Assembly: GCA_012295275.1 (NCBI GenBank)
Contig: CM022672.1
Span: 620,001 to 684,000, forward strand
From: Chrysomallon squamiferum
Taxonomy: Eukaryota > Animalia > Mollusca
Direction of reading: 5' to 3'
Length of the DNA stretch: 64,000 nt
The notes beneath the pieces were generated by a model. It searched no databases and was not told where the DNA came from. It worked only from the letters and a program-made list of their open reading frames with translations. Position numbers and translations under genes: made by a program. The stretch's first letter is position 1; each line of letters starts with the position of its first letter. Positions 7,261-64,000 of the stretch are shown piece after piece.

Positions 7261-8048
7261 TTATCTTCGCAGACTACGCAGTAGAAACTGGTTTTGCACG
7301 TCGGGAGGAAACCTGGGCGGAGAACCCGTCCTGGGCGTGAACGAACCGCGCCTTTCCATCTGAGTGTTGCAGCTGGGCAGGGAACGACTGAACGCACTTC
7401 GGAACTTGGTGGAGATAAGGCCGTAGATGAGCGGGTTGCCGGCGCTGTTGACGTACGCCAGAATCCTCGACAGCGACAGAATGTTAAAGTAAAACTCCAT
7501 CCCCATCCACTCGATGCTGGTCGACGGAGTAAACACCAGCCACAAGCCGACAATTCTGATTGGCAGGAGTGAAACAAAAAATAAAATCACTATGGAAACC
7601 ATCATGCGCACAACCTGTTTCCGGGAATGAATGGCTTTTACATTGGTGCTTTCCCCTGGCGAGGTTTCGTGGTTCAGTCTGAAGAGCTTTTTGATGATGG
7701 ACATGTACATGAACGTCAGCATACACATGGGCAGCAGGAAGAACACACAGAACATGAGGACGACGTACAGCTTCGGCAGCGTCGTCTCCATCTTTGTACG
7801 ACACACCTTCACTGCAGAGCCGTCGAAGAACTCAGCATCCTCCAGTGACGTCATGAAAATGAAGGGTAGTGACAGAATGAATGCAGACAACCAGATGCAC
7901 GTCACACAGACAGCCGTGTTGCCAAGGAGACACATTCTCTTGTCACTGAGTGGGCGACATATCGCGTAGTACCTCTCCAGACCGATCGCTAACAGAGTCA
8001 GCACCGAGGAATGTAGGGACGCGTGTTCGAGAAACGGTACCAGCTTAC
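7261..8048 (-). CDS. Coding exon 2 (TM3-TM7, C-terminus) of a second ETHR/PRXamide-receptor-like GPCR
   Basis: Acceptor tttatttttcAG|GT AAG CTG (AG at 8050-8049, phase 1). Motifs KLVPFLEHASLHSSVLTLLAIGLERYYAIC, DAEFFDGSAVKVCRT and YVNSAGNPLIYGLISTKFR. Clear paralog of 1843-2645. Confidence 0.92.
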
Positions 8049-11026
8049 CTGAAAAATAAACAATTGTTAACATTTGTACATTTGTTTCAGCTACGCTGTG
8101 ACAGTCGTATGTTACAACAACACTGTTACAGTCATCACTACTACGACTATAATGTTACCAATTTGTCGTATCAACTTAGACTACTAGTTTAACTATTACC
8201 AACACTTCTACACTACTACATCTGACATCGCCATATCCTCATCCATTATTACTAAAATCACACTCATCACCATTACTAACCCCACTCACACTACCACTGC
8301 TACTACTACAACAACTATTATAACAGAAAAACTAATTATTTTAGAACACTGCAAACCACATTTAATCTTGATGTGTGGGATAACGTGTTATAAATATCTG
8401 AAGACCTATCTTTTAATCTTTGATTTTTTTTCTATAATTAGATTTTTTTCTGGATTATATGGATGGTAGAGTTATACAGATTATATAGAATAATTCGTGA
8501 TGTTTTACAAGTGGAGTAAAATGAGGCTAGTTCAGTAAAATGGCATGACGACACGACATTTTCAAAGAGTATCTGAAATTACACGCAATACAGCTCATTA
8601 TACTGATTTAACAGGAACATATATATTTTACAGTACACTGCATAGACAAACACTAAAACACAGACAGACGACATCATTAAAAATAATGATATAGTCATGA
8701 TGATATCTATTCATGACCAGATTTAACAAGTGAATTCCAAATTTGTTTCACCGTTACATAAACACGCTTTTAAACTTGGACAGAAGAAACCAAGCTGTGT
8801 TTTAAAGAGACTGGTATTTAACTCATTTTGAAAAATCACTGGTGCTTAGTTTAACGTAACATCTGATGACATTACTGAACAAAAATAATGTTTACTGGAA
8901 ATCATGGTAGTGGAAGTTCGCTATTGCCAAACCATGAAATAATTCTATTGACACAAATATAACGGACACCATATCTCAAACTTTTATCTTCTATTTGCTG
9001 TCAAAAAGATGGAAATAAAACTGGTTCTATGCCCTGTTTTTGTAAGACAAACATCATTTCACTATGCTAAAACATAATAATCGTATAAGCATGTCTGCAT
9101 ATTTTCCTGATGAAATTGCCAGTTTTCCTTTTTTCACCCTTACATTTAAAATTCATAATATTCAAATTAAAAGAAGATAGTAACCAAAAAAAAATAAAAA
9201 TAAAAATAAAAAAAATAAAAAATAATATGAAATAAAAATATCACAACAAAAAGCCAAAAACCAACAACAAATGTAAATGACGTAAATCGTTGGGAGCCTA
9301 GATACCAATTATTGTCGCCAAGGTATCCGCTTAACTGGCAAAATGATGACAGTAATATGATCTAAGAGACCCGCTTGAAGACATGGCATAAAAAAACAAG
9401 AACGATATAACCCTGAGCGGAAACGTTTTCATAAATTACACGCTAAGTGCTGTTAGTATATGTGCTGACTTGAACGAAGCTCATATAATGTTCAAATAAT
9501 GTGTGAAAAAAACCTCTTTGTACAAAGTAAAACGTAATGTCTGTTTTTAAATAGACATATCTATTAACGTAACATTTATTATAAAAATAGATCTACCTGT
9601 AACTTTAACTTAACAGATGTCTATATTAATATAACATTATTTTTAAATGTATCAATCTGTAACATCGACATAACACTTACGATAAATTGTCCGTATGTCA
9701 CATCAATACAACGTTTATTTCATATAGATTTATCTGTAACATATTAAGATAGCAATTAATTTAAACAGATGTTTTTGTAACATTAACATAACCGTTTTAA
9801 AATAGATCAGTTTGTAAGGTGTTAACGCAACAGTTATTTCAAAATGAATTTGACATAAAACGTAACAGTTATTTTAAAGAGATCTATCAGTAACGTTAAC
9901 GTCAGTTATTTCAGATAGATTCATCTGTAATATATTTACATCACAGTTATTTTAAATATATTTGTCCGTAGAATATTAATATAAGTTACTTTAAATAGCT
10001 CTCATCTGGGATCTGGCGACATTTCTCTAGTCTAGTACGGCTGTGTCATTTATAAATTCATGTTTTGCTAATCGCTTTCTGCTAACAACCGGGTTGTCTG
10101 CGAAACAAGAATTGGCTGATTGACAGAAATGATTAAATTATTGACAACGTACTGAAACTTATAAAAAAAAATAAATAAAAAAAAAAATAAAAAAAATAAA
10201 AGAAAAACGTAACATAAAAATAGAAACTAACTAACATATTAAAGTGTTCTGTTCAAATTCATCAGTTCTTATATTTGCCTTTTTTAAATTTATTTTGTTC
10301 AGCATGTCTTTCTTTCTTATTCACCGTATTGTGCTTCTTTAGAATTATATGATACAATGTTGTTATTATAATTATGTAATGTTGTTATTATATGATACAA
10401 TGTTGTTATTATAATTATGTAATGACTTTGACACATATTTGACATTCTAATTTTATTATGTATATTTTCATAAAATATATAAGATGAAGCCAAGTTTTGC
10501 ATTTTAAAATCACATTTTTATTCTTTCATAATTTAATAAATTAATAAATAAATAAATAAATAATTCTGGTTTTCGTTGATCCAGTCTTTATATCTGATTT
10601 AAATTTATTTCTAAATCTTCAATTTTTATTGTTTTTTAATTTTGTTTCTAAAAATCCACTATTCGAACAGTAATCTGAATATTGCACGTAAATCGATGTG
10701 CTGGGTCCTAGATTCCCGCATATGTCAGGGCCGTATGTGTCCCAGCTTATCGTGAGTCAGACTGTAACCGGAAACTTATCTACGCATGTGCAACACTGTC
10801 ACATGTAATCCCTCCCTCGCCTTCCTTTGATTACGCGAATGTCGTCAAAGCCACAGATTTTGAAAAATGATGACGACTTTGGCCCCTTGTAAAGACCTGA
10901 CTGATATTTTTAGAAATGCATATTAATTCTACTTACATTGTGCAAACTATGAAAATACGAAAACAACTGCCATTTATGCTATAAAATAGATATATGTATT
11001 TTTTTTTGTGTGTTTAGAATACTTAC

Positions 11027-11486
11027 ACATTGCTTCTCCAAGAAGCCAGCGATCTTGTCCAAAAAATTCCAACATGGCCGACGGCTGACAAATGACCAGC
11101 ACGAGCAAATCCGCCACGCTGAGGCTCATCAGGAAGTAATTGATGCGCGAGCGCATGGCTTTCATCCGGGCTATCACCTGAATCACCATGATGTTACCCG
11201 CCACACCCACAAGAAATATAGCTCCGTTTAATACAGATACGTAAAATAGTAGGTAGAACGGCATCTCAATGATATCACGTGATTGGCTGGAAGTGTTAGT
11301 GTGTATGACGTCACTGGTGACGTTACAGCATTGTGGTGATACGTCACTGAAACTAGACCTTGGAAAGCTGTGCAGACTCTCTCCTACAAGTCCTGACTCT
11401 ACGACAAAGTTTGTGTGACTTACGTTTTCTGCGTGAGAGAAAAACTCCATTTTGTGAAAACTGTTGTAAAACTCGAAATGGTACAT
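11027..11486 (-). CDS. Coding exon 1 (N-terminus, TM1-TM2, ECL1) of the minus-strand GPCR; joined to 7261-8048 it gives about 415 aa
   Basis: GVAGNIMVI (TM1 GN), NYFLMSLSVADLL (TM2 LxxxD) and WLLGEAMC. Donor ATG T|GTAAGT (11026-11021) is phase 1 and rebuilds T|GT = Cys of 'MCKLVPFLE'. N-glycosylation sequons NVS, NVT, NTS in the N-terminus. The true start could be the second Met. Confidence 0.9.
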
Positions 11487-12099
11487 ACTATGCTAATATT
11501 TCATAGGTTTACGTCATCTGAGTAGTTCTGTAAATGGACTGTTTAGATTAGTGAGCTTACAAGTAGACGTTTACATTAATCATGCAAACACACCTTTTAC
11601 AGTAGTCGTAGAAATAGCTCACTGACACCAGTCCTGTAAGAACACCATTTACTTGAGTCCCACAAGAAAAAAAATCGATATTAAAAGTCCTCTTAAGAGA
11701 AGACCGTAAGCATCAGATCCGCAAGTACATAGTCTATCAGACTTCACTGGACACTTATTTCAATAAATCTCCACTGTTCATACCTTCCATTGTCCTGTCA
11801 AAGTCACTGAAAACACGAATACCTTTTCTGTAACTGACGAAATGCTGTTTTCAGAAAATTACTGACAAAAAACAGACTGTCCAGTAGTGATCATAAAAAC
11901 AATATTTAAAAATTCAGAATTATTCTAAGCCTTAAACGAATTGCTATATAAAGGCCTGCTAAAACGAGAAAAGTTGACATTACTACGAGTTAGGATTTCA
12001 GCCTGACGAGTATTCCCACAAGACAAGACGAAGTAACAACTCTTCGCGCTGACTCGGTTCATGAATCGTTTTTCTCTTATCTTAGTAGAGAAATATAAC

Positions 12100-26258: not shown

Positions 26259-29200
26259 GTTATGTGTTCTGTGTTCTGTGTTCTATGTTACGTCTGTGAG
26301 GAGGTTGGCACTGAGGACGTGGTGGTGTTGTTGATGATTTTATTACAGAACTAATCTGTCTCAGACGTACACTTTATTTTCTGATTTATCAGTCACGTGA
26401 CATTTCCACGTGTCTATCCGAAGAGAGACCTGTTTTACGTGAACCTAGAGATTTCTTAAATTTATTCTTATCTTAATTATACGTCACAGTTCAATAACAG
26501 AACTTCTGTAGCTGACAACACAGCTGAACTCTGTTTACACTCAGGCCGTAGTCTAACGGCATATGAGGATACATTCACACAAAATGTAATGTAACTATAA
26601 CAATTATAACAAGATGGTGAATTTACAATAATGTACATAATAATAAAATATATACAGTGTATCAATATATCTGCCACAGGACTTGAAAAAATTCATCATA
26701 CAGAAAATAGATAGTTTTTAAAAGTTTGGATGCTTGGTTTGGAGTGACAGAAAAATGGTAGGTAACGGTTCCTTTGATTCTTATCTTCGATGTCATCGTT
26801 ATTGCACAACAGACATATTCTATTTATCTACTTTTCTGTCTTCCAACAAACCCATCGTCCTCGTTTTACACTGATCTCACTACAGCAACATTCACCTCCT
26901 GCTTTTACGTCTTTTTCTAGGTATTAGACAACTTCTCTACAGTAACTCTCATTTTGTTCTCATCAACAGCTTCACTTTTTTTGAAGATTAACATCAAATA
27001 CGATTACGCATTATGGTTATAGATTCAGTTATATAGCTTATGGACAAATATTGTTTACATTTGTTAACCGAGCTGTGACATTTCTGACAATTCCTGATTA
27101 GTTATTTAGTTATTTAGATTATTACCGATATAACTTATGTTGTTGTTGTTGTTGTTAATATTATTATGTGTATGATTTGATGTCAAATTTGTAGTTCTTC
27201 GTTTTCTGCTAAGGCCAGCATATTAATAAAACACATGAAATTGCTGGTTATAGACTGAGTTGTATAGACTTACAGATTACAATCACAGTGCCTGGTTTTA
27301 GAGTCCTTACATAAACACGAAGTCATAGAAAACATCTTCTTCGACTACTTACGTGTAATTAGTACGCAGAAATGAACCCTGACAAAGAGATAAAGTTTCG
27401 GATAGAAATATATCAGGATAATTTTCTTCTGCTCTCTCAGCTGTTTTGTTATTTCTGCGTCTCGTGACACAGTCTAGTGTCTGCTGAAACCAAACAGTTC
27501 GAGTTTATCTGCGACGCGTGATTCACGAGCGAAGTCCTGGAAGAGCAGGAAATGCTGTAGAACAACGAGAAACGTTTCAAGTAAACACTGAGATTTATAT
27601 TACGTCAGTTTGTCAGTTCAGTTTAATAACACACTAGTTTACCTGTTTTTGTTGTTTTAATTAATTAATTAATTAATTTATTTATTGCTATAATCATTTT
27701 CATCTTCATCTCTATTATTATCAGCATCGTCATCGTTATTCCTCTTATAATTATTGTTATCATCATCATCATCATTCATCATCAGCATCATCATCGTTCA
27801 TCATTAACATTATCATCATCCTTATTAATATAAAGTCTGTTTTAGATATTTCACTGTCAGGTGTGTGACACAGATAACGTGTAAAGAAGTTTAATACAAA
27901 ACAATCACCTATGTTAATGAATACACTAATAACAACGATATACAAATGGTTGCATTCTCTGTGTTTATAAGAGAGCTTTACTTAAGTTTGCATAATCGTC
28001 ACGTGTGGAATGTGAACACTTGAAAACTCTAACAACTTTTATTATTACATATATTGCATGTCAATAACCATAGTTTTGTTAATTATCCCATCATCAATAC
28101 TAAAAACAAATTTTGAAAAACAAAATAACAGTGTAACAATAGTGATAAACTCTGCAGAAGAAAGAAAACAACAATAATGATAACAAGATGAGCAAATATC
28201 AACATCATGAACGCGAAGAAAAAGAAGAAAAAATCTTTAATTAATGCAAACAAAACTAATAAATATAAAGCTTTATTTGTTTTTATATTTTTTTAAACTT
28301 TTATCAAAACATTTATATATAATCCCTGTCTACATCAATTTAAAGCAGATTGGACAATATTCGCACTGACTTTTGGCTAACGTTTCACGTTTAATCTAAT
28401 GTAATTAGAGTTTAACCAGTGATAACGAAACAGAATCTGACGTGTTTGTTTTACTCAAAACAGTTCCAATTATCTGCGAATATTTAAGATGCCTGACAGT
28501 TAAAGTGGTAACAAAAACACCCAGATTAACGGTTTATATTATATGCAAAACTGTCATTTAACGTTATTTACAGTAAATACACTTTGATATGGCCTTGTTA
28601 GTAGAAAGATGACTAGAGTAATGCTGATTTATTATTATTATTATTGCTTTTCATGCAAAGTATATCTGACATAATAATGATTATGACATCTTAACATGAA
28701 ATTAATTTAATTAGATATCATTATTAATTATTCTTGACGTTATTTGCGATTATGACGTCATAATAAAAAATATATAAGTTGTCCTGAAACTAGTATGACT
28801 GAATAAGACTGTTCAGTGCTAATACACTTTTATTTTGAAAAAATATATTCTTTCTTTTCTTCTTCTTTTGATCCTTTTTTTTCTCTTTTGTTGTGCCTCT
28901 GGCTTTCTGTAAAATAATGCTGTCCTGAGGTTTTCAGTAAAACTTGAATGGTGGATCGAGTGACAATCAACTTTTTCAGTGACTAGAAAAACTCTCAAAC
29001 TCTCTGTCTGCAAGAACTTGTTATCAGGGCTTCTTCGTTTCCTCAAGCCATTTCTAGTTTCACCTACAACAAAGTCGTAAACTGTAAGACATCCATCCCT
29101 CTTTGTAGCAGAATGTAAATATGTTATTAATGTTATCGTTGTTGTTGTTATCATTAGCGTTTGCTGCATCCTTCGTCACCATTATCAACGTTGTTGCTGC

Positions 29201-29901: not shown

Positions 29902-30947
29902 ATGTGTTGATACAAGTTTTTACGACTGAAACGTGCACTCTGTGACGTCTGTGTTGATACCAGTTTATCTTTATGACTGAAACGTGCACTCTGTGACGTC
30001 TGATGTGTTGATACAAGTTTGTCTTTATGACTGAAACGCGCACTCTGTGACGTCTGTGTTGATACAAGTTATCTTTACGACTGAAACGCGCACTCTGTGA
30101 CGTCTGTGTTGATACAAGTTATCTTTACGACTGAAACGCGCACTCTGTGACGTCTGTGTTGATACAAGTTATCTTTACGACTGAAACGTGCACTCTGTGA
30201 CGTCTGATTTGTCGATACAAGTTGTCTTTACGACTGAAACGCGCACTCTGTGACGTCTGTGTCGATACAAGTTGTCTTTACGACTGAAACGTGCACTCTG
30301 TGACGTCTGTGTTGATACAAGTTATCTTTACGACTGAAACGTTTGATGTGTCGATACAAGTTGTCTTTACGACTGAAACGTGCACTCTGTGACGTCTGAT
30401 GTGTTGATACAAGTTGTCTTTACGACTGAAACGTGCACTCTGTGACGTCTGTGTTGATACAAGTTATCTTTACGACTGAAACGTTTGATGTGTCGATACA
30501 AGTTGTCTTTACGACTGAAACGTGCACTCTCTGACGTCTGTGTTGATACAAGTTGTCTTTACGACTGAAACGTGCACTCTGTGACGTCTGATGTGTTGAT
30601 ACAAGTTGTTTTACGACTGAAACGTGCACTCTGTGACGTCTGTGTTGATACAAGTTGTCTTTACGACTGAAACGTTTGAAACGACTGCACTCTGTGACGT
30701 CTGATGTGTTGATACAAGTTGGTTTTACGACTGAAACGTGCACTCTGTGACGTCTGATGTGTTGATACAAGTTGTTTTACGACTGAAACGTGCACTCTGT
30801 GACGTCTGATGTGTCGATACAAGTTGTCTTTACGACTGAAACGTGCACTCTGTGACGTCTGTGTTGATACAAGTTGTCTTTACGACTGAAACGTGCACTC
30901 TGTGACGTCTGATGTGTTGATACAAGTTGTCTTTACGACTGAAACGT
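29902..30947. repeat. Minisatellite, 50/53-bp unit, about 20 copies
   Basis: tttacgactgaaacgtgcactctgtgacgtctg(at g)tgttgatacaagttgtc with period 50 (30074, 30124, 30174). Some units are internally deleted. Confidence 0.95.
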
Positions 30948-31913
30948 CTGGTACACAGGTGACACACGAAGTCCAGAGACTTTTCATGTATAGTTCTGCG
31001 ATGTCGTTGTAGATGATGCAGTTTGCCGAATGCACGACCACACGTCGCACATACAAATGGATAAACGTTTTCTGAGATATTCGTGTCATGAATTCGCTTT
31101 CTGAAAGAAAATATTCAGAATTAGAAAAAAAGAAAGTGGAAGTTTGATATTTATTGTATAGACGCTGTTTAGTGTGAAATACAATTTTACTTTTACCTTT
31201 GTACGATCTGAATGTTAGAAACGAAAGAAACACACAACATTGACAGCCTATAAATAGGATGTTCAAAATGTGTGTATGTGTGTTAATTTTGAAAAACGAA
31301 CTTTTGAAAGTCCAAGGGATAGTAATGGATACTCCTTTAGCAACACCAGCTACTTTTTCTGCAAGCAATTTTTTCTTCAATCACTCTGGGCGATAGATAA
31401 AAACTATAATATAATATTGTAAATACAAACGTTTTATTGATATTTCTTGACAACAGTTTAAGAACAATACTGATAAATGTAAAAATATGTTTAAACAATA
31501 AAATCTCTTATACATAGCAATAACAAGTACAATGGCAAGAAACAAATAAATATTATTAAACAGATTAAATACAGTTCACTGGAATGTTGACTGAAAAATA
31601 TCTCTGCTTTCCTGTACAGACTCTGAGTTCAGTGTAATCATGTAATAAATAGTATGTGAACAGTTTAGAAACAAACAAATAACAACAACAAAATAATAAT
31701 GAGATTAAAAAAAGAGAAAGAAAGAAAGAAAGAAAGAAAGAAAAACAAAAAAACAAAAAACAAATATGGAACAAAAAAATAAATGCAACAAATGTGTTCT
31801 TATTTCCAATCCGCACTTGAATGAAAAACTGAATACATGAAAAAATAAAAAAATAAAAATAATCAAAATTAATAAAGAATAATTAAAAAAATAATAATAA
31901 AAAAATAATAATA

Positions 31914-34287: not shown

Positions 34288-34576
34288 TTATATATGTAAA
34301 TGTCTCTCTAAAGAACTTACTTGCTTGCTGTAGAGGAGACCAGACAGAGATCTGTAGTGTGTTTTGATGTGTTTGTTTAACACGTCTTTCCTACAGAACA
34401 TCTTGGCACACACAGGACAGGAATGACACAACATCTTCTCGTGGACACTTCTCTCGTGTCGCACAAGATGATGTCGCGACGAGAACTGCTTCTTACACAC
34501 ACTGCACTCGTGATGATGATAATGATGATGACGACTTCGTAAATGAGTGAGGTCATGTGACTTGATCACGAGCAAT
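34288..34576 (-). CDS. Alternative terminal exon ZF-A: two C2H2 zinc fingers
   Basis: Acceptor cttcatttcAG|A TTG (AG 34578-34577, phase 2). CSVCKKQFSSRHHLVRHERSVH ... CPVCAKMFCRKDVLNKHIKTH. His-rich run before finger 1. Own stop codon. Confidence 0.85.
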
Positions 34577-38691: not shown

Positions 38692-38856
38692 TCATTTCCT
38701 GTTGTTATCTTTTCCAGTGTATGTGTGGCCACAGTGACAACATAAGAATCGTGTTTCTTGCTGGTGGATGGTGCTGTAATGTCGCTGTCCTCGGTGTGTG
38801 AATGTCTTACCACACACAGGACTACTGTCATCACTGTCAACTGTGTAATGCTGGCC
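38692..38856 (-). pseudogene. Decayed zinc-finger-pair pseudo-exon of the array
   Basis: Acceptor ttgtttttcAG (38858-38857). Reading from the first exon base gives GQHYTVDSDDSSPVCGKTFTHRGQRHYSTIHQQETRFLCCHCGHTYTGKDNNRK*. The first Cys is lost, helix 1 is shortened, finger 2 stops before its His residues, and the ZF frame is shifted relative to the phase-2 frame. Confidence 0.7.
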
Positions 38857-39711: not shown

Positions 39712-39949
39712 TCACAGAGTGGACAGGGCAGACTCGTGTAAGCGTGAATTCAGGTGGGCTATCAGGTGGCCTTTCTGCAGGAAACGCTGACCACACAGAG
39801 TGCAGCTGTACTTGCGCCGCTGCTCGTGTACAAAGCGGCAGTGTCTGCTGAGGTTGGCGCGGTCGTTGTATTGTTTATTACACAAGTTACACACAAACAT
39901 TTGACCTTGGCTCCTACCTGCACACTTTGAAAGCGAGTAGACAGTTCGC
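39712..39949 (-). CDS. Alternative terminal exon ZF-B: two C2H2 zinc fingers
   Basis: Acceptor tttctgtttcAG|G CGA (AG 39951-39950, phase 2), open into MFVCNLCNKQYNDRANLSRHCRFVH...CTLCGQRFLQKGHLIAHLNSRLH. Stop. Confidence 0.85.
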
Positions 39950-41701: not shown

Positions 41702-41930
41702 TCATCTGGTTTGTTTTTTCAGAGTAGTGGGAGACTGGTGCAGTTTGGAGTTGACATGTTGTATTAAACCGTCTTTGCGATTAAACTGTCGACCACACAG
41801 GGGACATGGAAATTTCTCTCTCTGTTCGTGGATACTTCTCAGATGTCTTCTGAAGTTACTTCTGTCACTAAAACTCTTGTCACACAACTCACACACAAAG
41901 TAGGAACGTGCTGCCTTGTCCAGAGTCTTC
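41702..41930 (-). CDS. Alternative terminal exon ZF-C: two C2H2 zinc fingers
   Basis: Acceptor tttgttctgctttgcAG|G AAG (AG 41932-41931, phase 2); a second in-phase acceptor would start the exon at 41969. CELCDKSFSDRSNFRRHLRSIH...FPCPLCGRQFNRKDGLIQHVNSKLH. Confidence 0.87.
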
Positions 41931-44664: not shown

Positions 44665-44869
44665 TCATTTGATGTGTTTTTTCATGTGAACTCTAAGGTT
44701 GTCTTTCCTGTTGTAGCGTGCCCCACACACAGTACAGACAAACGTGAATGCTTTCTGGTGAACTGTGAGCTTGTGTCTGACGAGCACGTAGATGTCAGAG
44801 AAGGTTTTCTTACAAATGTCACATGTGAGATTACGTTTGTAGTCTTTCTTACACGATCTCACCACAACC
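44665..44869 (-). CDS. Alternative terminal exon ZF-D: two C2H2 zinc fingers
   Basis: Acceptor ttgttatttttcAG|G GTT (AG 44871-44870, phase 2). CDICKKTFSDIYVLVRHKLTVH...CTVCGARYNRKDNLRVHMKKH. Confidence 0.87.
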
Positions 44870-45901: not shown

Positions 45902-46139
45902 CTAGGAGGAAGCACAGCCACGTGACACACTCTTTAAACCAAACAGATCTCCGTGTCTCTTCATGTGGGCAGTCAGGTTGTCCTTTCTGTTGTACTGCTT
46001 GCCACACAGCATACAGCCAAACAAGAACACTTTCTCGTGTACACTTTTCTTATGTCGGGACAGCACGCTGGAATCAAAGAATTTCTTGTTGCAAACTTCA
46101 CAGATGTTTTTGTCATCACTGTATTTGTTGTGTGTTACT
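45902..46139 (-). CDS. Alternative terminal exon ZF-E: two C2H2 zinc fingers (not listed in the ORF track)
   Basis: Manual translation after tttctgtgtttcAG|A (AG 46141-46140, phase 2): VTHNKYSDDKNICEVCNKKFFDSSVLSRHKKSVHEKVFLFGCMLCGKQYNRKDNLTAHMKRHGDLFGLKSVSRGCASS*. TAG at 45904-45902. Confidence 0.87.
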
Positions 46140-48483: not shown

Positions 48484-48715
48484 CTAGGTAAGTTTCTGAT
48501 CCTTGAAATGATCTAAGAGAGTTCTGTTGTGTTTTTTCATGTGTGCAGTCAGACTGTCTTTTCTGTTGTACTTGCTGCCACACACACAGCACACAAACAA
48601 CTTGGACTTGAGGTGAACACTTTTCCGATGTCGGGACAGCACGCTGGAATCAAAGAATTTCTTGTTGCAAACTTCACAGATGTTTTTGTCATCACTGTGT
48701 TTGTTGTTATTTACT
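48484..48715 (-). CDS. Alternative terminal exon ZF-F: two C2H2 zinc fingers
   Basis: Acceptor tttctgtgtttcAG|A GTA (AG 48717-48716, phase 2). CEVCNKKFFDSSVLSRHRKSVH...CCVCGSKYNRKDSLTAHMKKH. Confidence 0.87.
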
Positions 48716-49546: not shown

Positions 49547-49784
49547 CTATGTAACGTGATCGTCAGTGATGTTGTGTACACCACATGTTGACTTCTTCAT
49601 GTGCTGGATCAGGTTGTCTCGTCTGTTGTATGCAGCACCGCAGTTGCACACAAACGACCGCTTCTCGTGGACAGTGCGATGATGTCTGAGCAGTGTATAG
49701 TGGTATGTGAATCTCTTCATGCAGATGCTGCACACGTGGCTTGCCGACACTGCTGCTGTCTGCTGCACCCAGTTCCCTCCATGC
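49547..49784 (-). CDS. Alternative terminal exon ZF-G: C2H2 finger plus atypical CxC...HxxxxxC finger
   Basis: Acceptor tttcctttccAG|G CAT (AG 49786-49785, phase 2). CSICMKRFTYHYTLLRHHRTVH...FVCNCGAAYNRRDNLIQHMKKSTC. Confidence 0.82.
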
Positions 49785-51531: not shown

Positions 51532-51763
51532 TCAACTGTCACCATGGTGAACATTCATGTGAATGTGGAGGTGATCCTTCCGTGCGAAACCCTTAGAGCA
51601 AACTGAGCATGAGAAGCGAGTCATCTTGAGGTGCACACTCTGCACATGACGGCAGAGAGACTGGCGATAGGAAAACTCTTTAAAACAAATGTGACAAGTC
51701 ATCGAGTCGGACCGTTTGGGGACATTCCCTCTCAGCATGTGAGGAGTCAGGCGTTTGACAGGC
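51532..51763 (-). CDS. Alternative terminal exon ZF-H: two C2H2 zinc fingers
   Basis: Acceptor tcttctactttcAG|G CCT (AG 51765-51764, phase 2). CHICFKEFSYRQSLCRHVQSVH...CSVCSKGFARKDHLHIHMNVH. Confidence 0.87.
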
Positions 51764-53529: not shown

Positions 53530-53731
53530 CTAAAATAGTTTAGAGTGACGTACAAGAGAGTCTCTTCGTGTGAAAACTTGGTCACAGAGAGGGCATGAAA
53601 AGGACACTGATCGAGAATGAACAGTGTCATGATGTCGTTTTAAGTCATGTGGAAATGCAAACACTTTGTTACACTTAGCACACAGGTGGCGCTGTCTGAC
53701 AACACTTCCTGATTTTGTCTTCATGCCTGGG
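53530..53731 (-). CDS. Alternative terminal exon ZF-I: one complete and one truncated C2H2 finger
   Basis: Acceptor tttgtttctattgcAG|C CCA GGC ATG (AG 53733-53732, phase 2). CAKCNKVFAFPHDLKRHHDTVH...CPLCDQVFTRRDSLVRHSKLF* lacks the last Zn ligand. Confidence 0.78.
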
Positions 53732-55948: not shown

Positions 55949-56189
55949 TCACAGGTATAAATGAAACACTTGTGGATGGTGTTGTTTGATGTGAAGGTTG
56001 AGGTTAGAATTGCGGCTGAACTGTTTTCCACACACTGCACATTCACACTTGCTCTGGGCATGGACAGTACGCCTGTGTCTGGTCAGAGCAGAACGAAATG
56101 TGAAAGTTTTTGTACATTCACCACATTTGTACCTTGATCCACCAATGTACCTCTCTGACGAGACATTCAAGTTTGAACTTTGAGCCACT
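55949..56189 (-). CDS. Alternative terminal exon ZF-J: two C2H2 zinc fingers
   Basis: Acceptor tgcttccctttcAG|A GTG (AG 56191-56190, phase 2). CGECTKTFTFRSALTRHRRTVH...CAVCGKQFSRNSNLNLHIKQH. Confidence 0.87.
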
Positions 56190-56722: not shown

Positions 56723-57086
56723 TTATTTTTCATCATGTTTTTTAACAGGTAAGTCATCAAGGACAGTCAGATGAGGATGTTCTGCTGTGTCTAGCTGTGG
56801 ACTGCTTTCACTAAACTGGTCAGACATGTGAAATGACGAGTGACCTGCTGATTTCAGGTGTGAGTTGAGATGTTGAGCGAGAACATCCTTCCTGTTGTAG
56901 TTCTTGCCACAGAGAGGACATGTGTGACGCAGAAGACGTTGGTGCACACTCTGCTGATGTCGTACTAGAGTCCAGTTATATGTGAACTTTTTGTTGCAAG
57001 TTTCACAAATGTGATCTTTCTTAGATTTTATGGAAAATCGAAAGTCTCCTGTCATATCAATATTTGCATCAGCTTTTGAGGTCATT
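56723..57086 (-). CDS. Alternative terminal exon ZF-K: two C2H2 zinc fingers plus C-terminal tail
   Basis: Acceptor tttgttttgttttcAG|A ATG (AG 57088-57087, phase 2). CETCNKKFTYNWTLVRHQQSVH...CPLCGKNYNRKDVLAQHLNSH. Confidence 0.87.
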
Positions 57087-57301
57087 CTGAAAACAAAACA
57101 AATTGCAGTTGAAAGGTCTGTACAACAAGGGCGATTGTTTCACTCAGTCCACTATTTACCACATCTTAACCACTGCTCAAATCTATTCAAAACTCTGCTT
57201 ATGTAAGTCTCCAGAGTGAGGTCAGTATTCACATTTCACTTCTCAGTATAGCAAAAAGGAAGTAATAAGCTGATGACATGAAAAAATAAATAAAAAAAGA
57301 A

Positions 57302-57344
<43 letters not shown>

Positions 57345-60300
57345 AAAACAAACAAAATGAAAACCTCAATAAATATATAAGACTAAAGTGATAATGAGCT
57401 TACATTTTCACATTTCTGATTCATTCTGAAATTATTTACCATCATAAAATTCATTATATATTTTTTTTTTTTTTTTTTGAATGGAAGATTTGGTGGTGGT
57501 TTTTATTTGTATTTATTAACTGTTAAACCAAATGTAAGTATCTGGTATGCCACAACCAATGAATTCCAAAGTTAATAAGTTAAGACTGATTTAAGTGATC
57601 AGTAGAACTGACATTTACTGGGCTGTTCAGATTTTTGTCTACACAGTAATAAAACTACAACAACACAGCACAACAGAGATTATTTCATTACAAACATACT
57701 GCATTATTTAGTAGTATTTATTATTATCTAGGAAGATTTCTAACAGAAAAACAACAGTGTGACGAAAGGCTTTTCACTTGTAAAATTATTATTACTACTG
57801 AAATATGATGGTATTAACTTTTAAAATTGTCATCGGTTGAGGTATAAAAAAAAAATATATCAACAAATCACTGTTACAAATCTTCCCATTTCTGCCCGTG
57901 TTCTCGATTGAAATTAAAATAATCTTTGCTGCTGACTGAAAAAAACAAAACACATCAAGTTATTTAATTTTTATAAGTTATTAGCAACCATTATTTGAAT
58001 CAATGAACCATAACTTTCAAGTACAGCAAGTGTTCTTGACAATAAGTCTAAAACTGAGATATAAACCATTATTAATATATACTGTGATTAAGTTATTTAA
58101 TGGTGGTTCTAAAATCTTTCTTGACTGTATTCCGCAGAGAGGATACACCTTTAAGCTAATCAAATGAAAAATCGATAAATGACATTAATGGTAAGAATGG
58201 ATTAATAATTAATCTGCTTTCTAAATGTTTTCTCTTTCCATTATCTCAAGTGAAGTTTGAAATGATTAAGAGGTTTTTTTAATTACAACATTTTCCTCAT
58301 TTATTCCCTTTTTAATATTCTCCAACACAGAGCGAGACAGAGACTGAAGGAAATGACAGAAATGAAGTTATGAGATACCCATTATGTGCAAGTTTTATGT
58401 TTTTTACTGTCAAAAAGTTTAGCACTCTTCTTTTCACAAAATATTCTATTAAAGCTAAATTATGAATCACATCACTGTACAGAAATTAATTGTCTTTTTC
58501 TTTCTAGGTGGTTGTTGGGAGTTTCTTGGGGTTTTTTTATTTGAGGTTTGGTTTGTGTCTTCTTTCTTGGCAGTAAATAAAGAAGATATCAGTTTCAACA
58601 AATTGAAGAATTTTGTTTATTAGGTCTTTGAAACTGTTAACATGTTTATCTCTGTTACTATTAAAGATAAATTGTTCCTGTCTTACAAAAGTTACATGTT
58701 TTCAGTTCACTTTCTTGTTATATCTCTTTAACTTCCATGTACTGTGTCTGTTTGTCCCTGCACCATCTATGCTGTCATCAGATGGTGTAAAATTCCTGTA
58801 TATCTTCATCCATGCTTCTCTCTATATTTGTTTTGTTTTTTATTCTCATCCCTTCTTCCCAAGGGATTTGTTTCTACTTTTACTTGGTATTAAAATACAC
58901 AACGAGGCTACCTGGATTATTTTTAGCAGTGTATGATTGTCTACAAACTGAACAATATGATACATACAAGCATATTCACAATTTGTTTGGAGAACAGTAG
59001 GTTTGTTTCAGACTTGCAGTAATAATTTGTAGTTGATAAGGCATCAGAAAGAAACAAAATAAAAATAAATACACTGTACTAGAAGAATTTTATTAATATT
59101 AACATGTGTTTGTGTGAATATAGTTGAATATTTGCTCATTTTTATGAAAACATTCTGTATAGAAAACAAAGTTTATCATCAAAATAAATCCAAAGTATTT
59201 TGTTTACATTAATACTAAGTTATGAAAAATAAATGTTTGTCTCATTAGAAATCAAGATATGTCAAAGATGGTGTTATTTTCAGTTAACTGCAATAAACAA
59301 TGAACAGTGTCACAGGTACAATCTAATTCCAGTCTGTTGCACAAAAGTTATAAGACAGCTAAAAACATAGTATAATTTGCTGTTGTGTTCTGAATACACT
59401 GCTCACAACAAATCAAGATACTTATATTTTGTTTCTGTCAAACCTCTGAAGTGAAATAACATGTCGAGTATTGTTTAAAATAAAAAACCCTGTAATTTAT
59501 GAGTAGCTCAATTCATTTTATACTGGAAACTTGGTGTGGATTACCCCTTGTAATATTTTTCCTTTAGCTCTAAGTCACGTATAGTGTCTCATTTTATAAT
59601 CAATCAGAAATATATATATATGGCTTGTAAGAAATATATATATATATATTTTCAGTAACAGTTAAAAAGTATACAACAAAACAAATATTTGCAAAAACTT
59701 TTACTTATCAACACACTGTTCTAATCTCTTTAGTTATTTCTCTATATACAACTGAATTCTTAATGTCAGTTTGTTTAAAATTTGACATTGCCATTGGTAA
59801 CAGGAAAGGCCTTATGAACAGTAACTACAGCAACAACAAAAAAAAAAAAAATAAAAAATTAAAAATATAAAAAAAATAAAAAATTAAATGTTTTTTGTTT
59901 TTAATGTGTACATCTTCCAATGTATTATCATCTACTTGAAACATATGTAACAACAAATAGTTGTACTTGCCATTGTATATAAACAGAATCAAGATGGTTG
60001 TATCTGCCAATGTATATAAACAGAATCAAGATGGTTGTAATTTCCAATGTATATAAACAGAATCAATTAACTAATGACGACTACTGTTTTTTTGTTTTTT
60101 TTTATGTATGTGCCCATCTGTAAATGTTGTACAGCTTTGATAAATTGCTTTTTAAATTTACAAACAGCAGATACTTATAACAAACAAAAACATAAAGTAC
60201 CAAAAAACTGCAACAGTAGTAATAATACTAATAATACTAATAATAATACTACTACTACTAATAATAATAATAAACATCCCACATAATTATCTATATCAAT

Positions 60301-61797
60301 TTGCTGCCATCTACAATTAGTAATTCATAAAATTAATATTCATAAATATTTTTATAGTTATCTTTTCTTAGTATTTAGGAATATTTTTAAACAACACTTT
60401 TATGATTATAAATATTAGAATTGTTGTAGATTATTATTATTTTTTGTCTGATAATACTGCAGATCTCTCTCTCGCACACACACACACACACACACACACA
60501 AACACGTGCACTTGCCCAGTCCTAAACATTATTCAAACATAAAATTCTTCAATTTTCAGTTAAATAAAATATGTTGATAAAACCAGATGTTCTCATCATG
60601 ACAAGAGTTGCAGATTATTTATCAGTTTAATTATGAATATAAATTCACAAGATTGAAAAAAAAGTAGATTGTGTACCAAAGTAAATAACTGTTAATAACT
60701 GTAGCCACATGTTTCTCAAACAATATCGTAAATAGTAAATTAGTATATAACTGAATTCACTAGGCATTTTTACTAATAATTTACTAATATATACAATAGT
60801 GAAATTCAATTAACAGATAAAATAAGCTGTATTTTTAAAGTTTGCATTTTTTTTAAATACTGTCATATATAGTTTATGATCTCAAAAGGTAAACTGTTGG
60901 TACAAAGTTTATGATTTATTTTTATCCACACTGGTTTTCTGACAGATGTTACTGACAATGTTTGTTTTTGTATTTTTTATTTTTTTAATGTACTATGTTG
61001 TTTTATAAATTCATCAAATAAACATACATGTTGAAAAACACAAATACTGACTGAACTTGGCTTAAATAAATAAAATAAATGTGCAGCAGACACTCATTAG
61101 TGAAAAATAAATACATTTATTACATATGGTTTTATCACGCTGGACAAATGAAGAATCTTTTCAGACTTAGTGAAATGTTCTGGGCTACTTTCTCAGCTGA
61201 GATGTTAACAATATGAATTCATTTGTTCATTTTTATCTGACCTGACTACATCAGTTCAAATCCTTAACACAATTTTAATAAAGATTAATTTTATTATTAC
61301 TCTGAAAAAGCTAAAGTAAACAATTCAATACATTTTCCTGTACATTGTATCAACACTCATGTCAGTAAACTTCAACTGAAATGGCATTTTCCTTGGGATT
61401 TTGTTTTTCATCAATATTTGGTTAAACTGAAATATTCTATTTTGCTTTAAGTATGTTTTAAATTACAGTATTTGACTAAGCTGAAATATATATTGTCTTA
61501 TTCTTTTAATGAGTGTCTAGCTGATTCACGTTAACAACTGAAATATGTTAAAAACAAAGCATGCAGTATACTGTTGTTCTAGTATATCTGTGACATCTGA
61601 CTCCTTTTTTCAAATCAAAAGAACCACAAAAGGCAAAACTAACAATGGAAGCAGTAACAGATAGCAAAGAATAGTGCACTTTTTAAGCAACACTGATAAA
61701 GTATGGAAATCTATTTTTCATTTATTTACTGCTTTAAATCTTAACTTCTTGTAAGTAATAAAAACAAATTATCAAATCAATATAAGAATAGACTTAC

Positions 61798-61806
61798 TGA
61801 GTGAAA
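61798..61806 (-). CDS. Candidate 9-nt frame-preserving microexon
   Basis: ttattttttaatctttcAG|TTTCACTCA|GTAAGT: consensus acceptor and donor 9 nt apart. Confidence 0.35.
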
Positions 61807-63918
61807 CTGAAAGATTAAAAAATAATGTTAAGATCTGTCTATTCTAACAGCTACATTAATGGACAGGATATATCAGAACACTGGCCTTGTTGGCTGACAG
61901 AAGAGTATTAAAACATTTACTTTTTTCATTAGAATTTTCCTCTTAGTGTTTTGCAGCATAATTCTATAAATTGAGACAACTAGCAAAATTTTAAACAAAA
62001 CAAATTATGAACTACAAAATAAAACTGCTTTAGCAATAGGCAGTATTATAAGTCTCATTAAGACATAGCAAAGAGTTTGTTCTCTCACATTTTATTATTT
62101 TTTACAAGTAAAGGTCAAAATATGCTATTCATCTATCAGACTGTTACTGCTGTACATTCATAAGCAGATTTTAAAATATTTCTAAGTCATATTTTTTTTA
62201 ACTAACTGCAGCTTGACTAGGCATGTGATGTCTGTCTACTGATGTTTTGTCTGTAAGGTTGTTCATTTTTATTTAATGAAAATATTTCTTATTAAAACTT
62301 TCACAGATATTAGATGATAAAATGTTAATTCGCAGACATTATTCACTCAAAAACTAAAGCATAAATTATTGCAAAACTAATTTACATCTTTCTTTTTTAA
62401 AACTAATTTTTTATGTTTGTAGCATTTTTTTTTTTGGCGATTTTGCTACATGTTTGATAGCGAAACTGTTCTACTATACTGTAAGGATTAAAAACTACTA
62501 ATAAAAGAAAGACAAAGAGCTGTTTTAGAAGATTCTACAGCATTATTTTGCAAAATAAATTAGTTTTAATTAATGTGCAGGTTGTTTTCTACAGCACTAT
62601 TCCAAAGTTAAATGGCAAAAAACCTCAGAAATATCTAAACCATACCTCCTATTAGTCTAGTATGATTTGAAATTGTCTTTTGAATAAGCATACTTTAATT
62701 ATTATTTTTTTAAATATATTCAGCTTGAATGCATGTTTCTATTTCCCCCCAACTTTCCCCTACTTGTCAGTGTGGTTACCTACAGAGTATGTATCTTGCT
62801 GAACAGCAGTTAGTTTCAATTTGTGTGTTACTGTGTATTTGTTTTTCTTTTTTCTGGGTTACCAGTTGGGTTGTATTCAGTGCTTCTGAACTGACATTTT
62901 TGTCAGTCTTACTTAAACTTTGTCAAGTCAGTACTGTGTGTACATGACAAATAAGGATATGCAAGCATTTGCATATGTATTTCTATTTCAAAACAATCTG
63001 ACTGGTGCAAACAGGATAACATAAACCAATAAAAATATGCAAAACATGTGACCTGTTTACTTATAAATTATATCATTATTATTATTTTTGTTGTAATTTT
63101 AACTACTGACACCTTTAACATACAAATAACAGCAGTGGAAATAGTTTATCTTATAAAATTTGAGTCTTTTAATAATTATTTTTATTTCCTGAGCAAAATG
63201 ATGAATATAAAACACAAATTTTTTAACCAGAAACATATCCTGAACAATTTTAGATGTACAGTGACTCAAATATCATAACTTCCTCACATTAAAACTTAGG
63301 CGTCTATGAGACAGACTGGCACAATTTTACAAACAGCTTGACAGCAAGACTGAACTTCAGCTTTGTGAGAGATTTAAACAAATTTACTTATTATCACATT
63401 AGAATATCTGCAAATATTGCAATTATATTAAGAGCAAAAGCTCTAAAAAAAAAAAAAAAAGTTACAACAAGTACTGCACTAATTTTCAGTGTCAATGTCA
63501 AGTTTTTAATGAAAGTTTCTATCAGCTATTACACGTGACAAACTACAAGATCTCCAAAACCTTACCCATTACATTTTATTTACTACATTTTTCTCAGACT
63601 GACTGAATCCTTTTCAACAAACCTAGTATGGGAAAACAAGAAAGATATCTGGTATTGTTTGTACATTATTAATGTACAGAAAATGTCAATCCACATTTAC
63701 ACGATAACAAGCTCAGTTCAAAAATAGGTGAATGCTAAGCTGGTAAATAAATTTAAAATGACCTTTAGAAAATTGTGTTCATACACCCTAATGGGCTCTG
63801 ACTGATGTTATGTGTAAGAGGGTAAAAATAATGGATGTAATAGAACGTCAAACTGCAGTTTACTAATTGTCTAGCTGTCACAGATACACTAACAACCAAA
63901 ATAAGTAAAAACACTTAC

Positions 63919-63971
63919 TGATTATCCCAAGATGCACCACCATCTGTTGTATTTCCAGAATGCAGTGTTTC
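63919..63971 (-). CDS. Candidate last shared (constant) exon of the zinc-finger gene
   Basis: ttttttttcacAG| 53 nt |GTAAGT (63918-63913). Read from the first base it gives ETLHSGNTTDGGASWDN+CA, which exits in phase 2 and matches all ZF acceptors. Confidence 0.55.
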
Positions 63972-64000
63972 CTGTGAAAAAAAATGGCACCTGAATAAGA

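Follow-up and report, generated by a model that had tools for sequence, protein, structure and literature searches.

The window analysed here is the whole 64,000-nt stretch of Chrysomallon squamiferum DNA (CM022672.1, positions 620,001-684,000), and it carries on its minus strand, ahead of a series of C2H2 zinc-finger exons, a 53-nt segment at 63971-63919 that is flanked by a T-rich CAG acceptor and a GTAAGT donor, as the first-pass annotation had described. This arrangement raises the question of whether the segment is a constant exon whose single donor feeds every finger exon, and of what kind of gene would be built in this way. We conclude with high confidence that the constant part of a gastropod gene ends with this exon, whose one donor is joined to at least three, and likely all 12, terminal exons, each with a C2H2 pair and a stop; the likely products are transcription factors that have their front in common and differ in their DNA-binding ends. 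The 53-nt exon taken alone is ordinary. The features considered are the following.

63972..63985, minus: acceptor (T tract and CAG) that joins the upstream constant exon; from the sequence, with contigs of all three RNA runs leaving the window here
63919..63971, minus: last constant exon, 53 nt, phase 0 in and phase 2 out, peptide ETLHSGNTTDGGASWDN plus 2 nt; from RNA contigs and ortholog
63913..63918, minus: common donor GTAAGT; from RNA contigs; read-through gives Gln and then a stop at once
56723..57086, minus: variable finger exon 1 (acceptor to stop); ortholog of Gigantopelta isoform X1; junction not in contigs
55949..56189, minus: variable finger exon 2; ortholog of isoform X7; junction in RNA run X3
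53530..53731, minus: variable finger exon 3; ortholog of isoform X10; second finger without its last ligand before the stop; junction not in contigs
51532..51763, minus: variable finger exon 4; ortholog of isoform X5; junction not in contigs
49547..49784, minus: variable finger exon 5; ortholog of isoform X13; junction in RNA run X2
48484..48715, minus: variable finger exon 6; nearest isoforms X9/X14, not reciprocal-best; junction not in contigs
45902..46139, minus: variable finger exon 7; ortholog of isoform X9; junction in RNA run X1
44665..44869, minus: variable finger exon 8; ortholog of isoform X15; junction not in contigs
41702..41930, minus: variable finger exon 9; ortholog of isoform X8; junction not in contigs
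39712..39949, minus: variable finger exon 10; ortholog of isoform X11; junction not in contigs
38692..38856, minus: decayed finger exon; an acceptor-like site remains, what is left of the finger stands in a different frame from it and has lost the first Cys; resembles isoform X2
34288..34576, minus: variable finger exon 11; ortholog of isoform X3; junction not in contigs
30830..31100, minus: variable finger exon 12; ortholog of isoform X12; 3' end enters a ~50-nt tandem repeat; junction not in contigs

Splicing of the 53-nt exon

The RNA evidence consists of assembled contigs, not reads, from three RNA runs (X1, X2 and X3; three samples of one study) over positions 63480-64000. Five runs cover the region, four of them recorded as RNA; run X5, whose kind is not recorded, gave no contig over these positions and so provides no DNA control. 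In all three, a contig covers the 53-nt exon and exits at both ends, with the break at the donor falling at 63919/63918. Beyond the donor, the contig of RNA run X1 continues into the finger exon that starts at 46139 (30 of 30 letters, with 4 differences from the paralogous exon 48715), that of run X2 into exon 49784 (30 of 30) and that of run X3 into exon 56189 (30 of 30). Each run therefore contributes one junction, 3 of the 12 finger exons are joined, and the other nine junctions are not among the contigs; the earlier proposal that this donor fits every finger exon is thus confirmed by a junction in three cases and rests on phase and orthology in the remaining nine. Spliced contigs do use the 63919 donor, as had been anticipated, although the junctions singled out for checking (34576, 39949 and 57086) are not the three that were seen. 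The loose end upstream of the exon is identical in the three runs, which corresponds to one common upstream exon. All three long contigs (records of 1,236, 1,649 and 1,624 nt) continue for about 1,180 nt on the upstream side of the 53-nt exon, outside the window, so that the segment is the last constant exon and not the first; the description of it as a shared upstream exon holds insofar as it is constant and feeds finger exons, but the transcript extends further upstream. This upstream length is compatible with the 1,101 coding nt that precede the corresponding exon in the Gigantopelta ortholog, and the loose upstream letters, read by hand in the frame of the exon, match the ortholog at 7 of 10 residues (357-366).

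The reading frame can be assigned from the same data. Frame 0 of the exon encodes the peptide listed above and leaves CA over, frame 1 is also without a stop, as had been noted, and frame 2 contains one. The frame leaving CA, with its phase-2 donor, is borne out by the RNA contigs and by 15 ortholog isoforms that diverge at this point, and on the same two sources frame 1 was rejected as the reading frame. The alternative acceptor that the first-pass annotation had suggested (exon start 63990) was rejected as well: all three contigs enter at 63971, and contig depth is 0 in the bin 63984-64000. The codons formed across the joint are six CAA, five CAG and one CAC; that they are never a stop had been offered as an argument, which carries no weight because stops do not occur among CAN codons.

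In all three runs, contigs also cover a stretch of the intron behind the donor (63523-63948), which means that some RNA is unspliced or ended early, or that there is DNA in the samples. These contigs, which come from a single study, have their end points at 63564, 63523 and 63552, close to an AATAAA at 63580; one of them is without 21 nt at 63675. Donor read-through to Gln and stop, together with these contig ends, hints weakly at a possible short finger-less form; contigs cannot show RNA ends.

We propose that each mRNA would take one terminal exon by 3' splice-site competition coupled to 3'-end formation after that exon, in cis, which is the simplest route because all variable exons are colinear with the constant exon. 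The same proteins could be made by trans-splicing, with a constant transcript that ends in the intron after the 53-nt exon and is joined to separately transcribed variable exons, but we consider this unlikely. Trans-splicing is established for both fly genes of comparable design, lola and mod(mdg4), according to passages of PMC11426971 and PMC4387717. It would also accommodate the end points near 63580 in all three runs and the position of the farthest exon, 33 kb from the donor and behind 11 other terminal exons. On the other hand, cis splicing is enough for 12 exons that all follow the donor on its own strand, and the end points weigh little given that AATAAA occurs 2.5 times per kb here, that the runs are from one study and that contigs have no power on RNA ends. 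No CAGGTRAGT (up to 1 mismatch) was found on the minus strand between 57087 and 63917, a result that is compatible with trans-splicing all the same; in the window as a whole this motif, with up to 1 mismatch, has 16 matches against 21.8 expected. The first AATAAA stands 72-2,852 nt past the stops of the finger exons, and as poly(A) evidence these matches were rejected as uninformative in such AT-rich DNA.

The finger-exon array and its Gigantopelta ortholog

Downstream of the 53-nt exon, on the same strand, we identified 12 C2H2-pair exons and a decayed thirteenth at 38856, where 11 finger pairs had been counted before. All 12 score above the Pfam zf-C2H2 cut-off, DNA binding being predicted, and each is open to its own stop. 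A phase-2 acceptor precedes every one of them: by an ad hoc, simple and frame-blind score, the AG that ranks first in the 100 nt before the first Cys is followed by a single base and then the finger frame in each of the 12 exons (product of per-exon shares, 5e-6).

A query with exon 49784 returned one longer protein, isoform X13 of Gigantopelta aegis LOC121383300 (80% identical); a homologue search with exon 41930 gave 2 unrelated finger proteins. This locus (RefSeq XP_041369163-XP_041369180) is uncharacterised, and each isoform stands under an unrelated automatic name. Its 15 listed isoforms, which are automatic RefSeq models, have 385 residues in common and then diverge; the common part ends on the peptide of the 53-nt exon (12 of 17 residues identical), the isoforms split at the next residue, and the 15 tails have 14 distinct starts. 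The constant part of the ortholog matches the window at 63974-63918 only. Reciprocal-best tails, with 58-87% identity, were found for 11 of the 12 finger exons in the window. The two genes are thus alike in their last constant exon and in 11 of 12 variable exons paired one to one, and they differ in that the X2 end is decayed in the window and the X4/X6 end has no counterpart there.

These comparisons bear on whether real alternatives are confined to a few of the finger exons, the others being decaying duplicates or separate small genes. Such a reading is improbable: nine of the 12 junctions were not seen, the copy at 38856 is decayed, the otherwise intact-looking exon 53731 has an incomplete second finger (which also weighs against our main conclusion), and exons 48715 and 46139 have a near-identical 5' part, but a phase-2 acceptor and an open frame are kept in all 12, and 11 have reciprocal-best counterparts that are RefSeq isoforms of one Gigantopelta locus.

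The array has changed in its details. The decayed exon was found with a profile of the tails of the ortholog, and its loss in the window, compared with the intact X2 end of Gigantopelta, implies exon turnover; the decayed exon (38692-38856) adjoins a long GA repeat. Exons 48715 and 46139 have their acceptor and first finger in common (176 of 206 nt alike in the 5' part) and differ in the second finger, for which the nearest ortholog tails are X14 and X9, respectively; recent gene conversion or partial duplication within the array is likely for this pair (48484-48715 and 45902-46139). At the end of the array, a ~50-nt tandem repeat of about 20 copies (29903-30947, minus) derives from the 3' end of the last finger exon. 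The source of its unit is the recognition helix of the second finger of exon 12, and the tail of that isoform is altered; both a real expansion and an assembly artefact are possible.

Elsewhere in the window, pieces of a Rhodopsin-family receptor (7tm_1) lie on the minus strand, with a first exon at 10974-11492 and a long second exon at 7261-8154, and a similar 7tm_1 long second exon lies on the plus strand at 1752-2645; the latter is likely a tail-to-tail receptor paralog whose first exon falls to the left of the window. A lone weak finger-like frame on the strand opposite to the array (27181-27255, plus; E 0.005 with the tail profile) is likely due to chance or a remnant.

The front domain and its gastropod family

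Since the window does not reach the front of the gene, the front domain is known from the ortholog alone, in which a domain of about 75 residues is followed by a low-complexity linker of about 290 residues. By orthology, the gene in the window presumably carries the same front, a non-BTB domain of about 75 residues plus linker. Pfam at E up to 10 gave five families on the ortholog, all zinc fingers, none of them on the front and none of them BTB. In 34 further relatives that were scanned, the front likewise matched no family. An AlphaFold2 model of the domain of a paralog (88 aligned rows) predicts a helix at 3-24 and strands at 30-41, 45-56 and 66-70, with pLDDT 81-94 over residues 1-60. Foldseek with this model returned 0 matches at E 0.001, and the top VIA-align match (Z 5.1, rmsd 2.6, 62 aligned; C9orf72-SMCR8) is within the range of common arrangements. 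No BTB chain stood among the fold-search matches listed, and a BTB is still compatible with such a listing. The ESM Atlas gave no usable match for ortholog residues 1-80 or for P0224, and a PDB sequence search with P0163 gave 0 matches at E up to 10.

That the domain is nonetheless a very divergent Tramtrack-like BTB, the gene then being a true lola relative and not a convergent one, is very improbable: the overall layout and the repertoire of ends (C2H2 pairs, Psq-HTH, FLYWCH, BEN) are the same, and several second fingers carry an RKDNL-type helix, as in Tramtrack-group proteins (the Tramtrack finger domain 2drp scored only E 0.31), but the ortholog matches no BTB family at E up to 10, and its front of about 75 residues, with one predicted helix, differs from the BTB domain, which is longer and mainly helical. 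In addition, the available passages of PMC11426971 place no Tramtrack-type BTB in Mollusca or Annelida.

Ortholog residues 1-78 identified 125 proteins of 130 candidates; the 120 listed are mostly Gigantopelta isoforms. The domain heads at least 14 named Gigantopelta loci among the matches listed, and grouping by constant region gives at least 16 Gigantopelta groups with 2 to 19 different ends each. The longest contig is the same (91,665,651 bases) for all Gigantopelta entries, so these loci may well be on one chromosome. The ends in the Gigantopelta set are C2H2, Psq-HTH, Tc5/CENP-B HTH, BEN and DUF3504 (7 of 20 scanned without a family), and those in more distant relatives include FLYWCH and a transposase-type zinc finger (8 of 14 without a family). 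When 1.84 billion representatives were searched with a profile, 108 matched, including a second subfamily with the same layout; the 10 matches that were looked up come from Physella, Littorina, Pomacea, Aplysia, Babylonia, Haliotis and Gigantopelta, with isoform labels that reach X35 in Physella, X30 in Littorina, X26 in Pomacea and X15 in Aplysia. All named relatives are gastropods, from Gigantopelta and six other genera. At Gigantopelta LOC121383032 (P0019-P0025), the choice has two tiers: several isoforms have the beginning of a BEN-like domain in common and are distinguished only by its last exon, and Psq-HTH isoforms occur beside them. In Haliotis (P0105-P0121), the named front-domain matches mostly carry DUF3504 in precomputed Pfam, a domain reportedly tied to Crypton domestication.

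In open PMC and bioRxiv text, no description of the front-domain family was found. The isoforms are already public as automatic RefSeq models; the gene and the family are without description in the literature searched. For Aplysia, numbers of Psq, CENP-B and FLYWCH genes are given in a survey of transposon-derived factors, whose main text does not contain the word 'isoform' (PMC10027918). Terms for splicing and N-terminal domains are likewise absent from the accessible portion of a cephalopod C2H2 paper (PMC12513265), and the sections available of the FiNZ paper name no molluscan domain (PMC10547256).

Comparison with known systems

Transcription factor genes that pair a constant front with many ends have been described in insects, where they use a BTB type reportedly confined to arthropods. 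As described in parts of the sources, Drosophila lola has 20 isoforms with a constant BTB front, 17 of them with a unique C-terminal zinc-finger exon (10.1101/132027, PMC11426971), and Drosophila mod(mdg4) has at least 30 isoforms, mostly with FLYWCH ends, made by trans-splicing (PMC11426971, PMC4387717). The snail gene resembles lola in its one constant front and in a last common exon that is joined to one of many terminal exons with one or two C2H2 fingers each, and it differs in a front without a BTB match and with another predicted fold, as well as in belonging to a gastropod and not an arthropod; lola is trans-spliced, whereas the snail gene is known here from contigs, which cannot tell cis from trans. 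Its resemblance to mod(mdg4) lies in the sister loci headed by the same domain, whose ends are mixed and include FLYWCH, BEN and Psq-HTH. Unlike mod(mdg4), it has no BTB match, all its variable exons are on one strand, no TSA-like U1 site was found in its last constant intron (minus strand, 57087-63917), and a single snail species shows this design in at least 16 constant regions.

Set against the Tramtrack group, the snail gene has a last constant exon that leads to one of many 3' terminal exons (three junctions, and the ortholog), and each of its 12 variable exons has its own stop and its own DNA-binding-type domain, binding being predicted. Sequence profiles find no N-terminal BTB in the ortholog and 34 further relatives, and the distribution is not that of arthropods, the named relatives being gastropod throughout. 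The gene works like lola and mod(mdg4), and it is not filed as a member of the Tramtrack group because it fails the BTB test by sequence; since the way of working is the same and this test fails, the likeness is likely to be convergence. By analogy, the front domain may be a protein-interaction or self-association module, in the role that the BTB has in lola and mod(mdg4), and the products would have the front domain and linker in common while differing in the DNA site that they read.

More broadly, and as a tentative proposal towards which we do not yet lean, gastropods may have independently evolved a system like that of lola and mod(mdg4) on their own self-associating front domain, with at least a dozen genes on one chromosome, each with a constant front and up to tens of terminal exons that would serve as a landing site for new DNA-binding modules, many of them transposon-derived (Psq-HTH, CENP-B/Tc5 HTH, FLYWCH, DUF3504, transposase zinc fingers). 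If this is true, a large share of the snail regulatory repertoire is hidden as isoforms, and isoform heteromers would allow combinatorial DNA recognition. The same design and the same kinds of ends on an unrelated gastropod domain would be a clear case of convergent gene architecture, within a range that includes the neurobiology model Aplysia, and the system is also suited to testing whether such arrays depend on trans-splicing. An unnamed domain family is thereby defined, and gene-level counts of molluscan transcription factors would miss many specificities.

A further comparison is with KRAB and FiNZ, which are described in passages of PMC10547256 as lineage-specific N-terminal domains of zinc-finger families. 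Like them, the snail family is restricted to a lineage and consists of DNA-binding proteins headed by a short, conserved domain. Those families diversify mainly via whole-gene duplication of long finger arrays, whereas the snail family combines one front with splice-swapped short ends of several domain classes.
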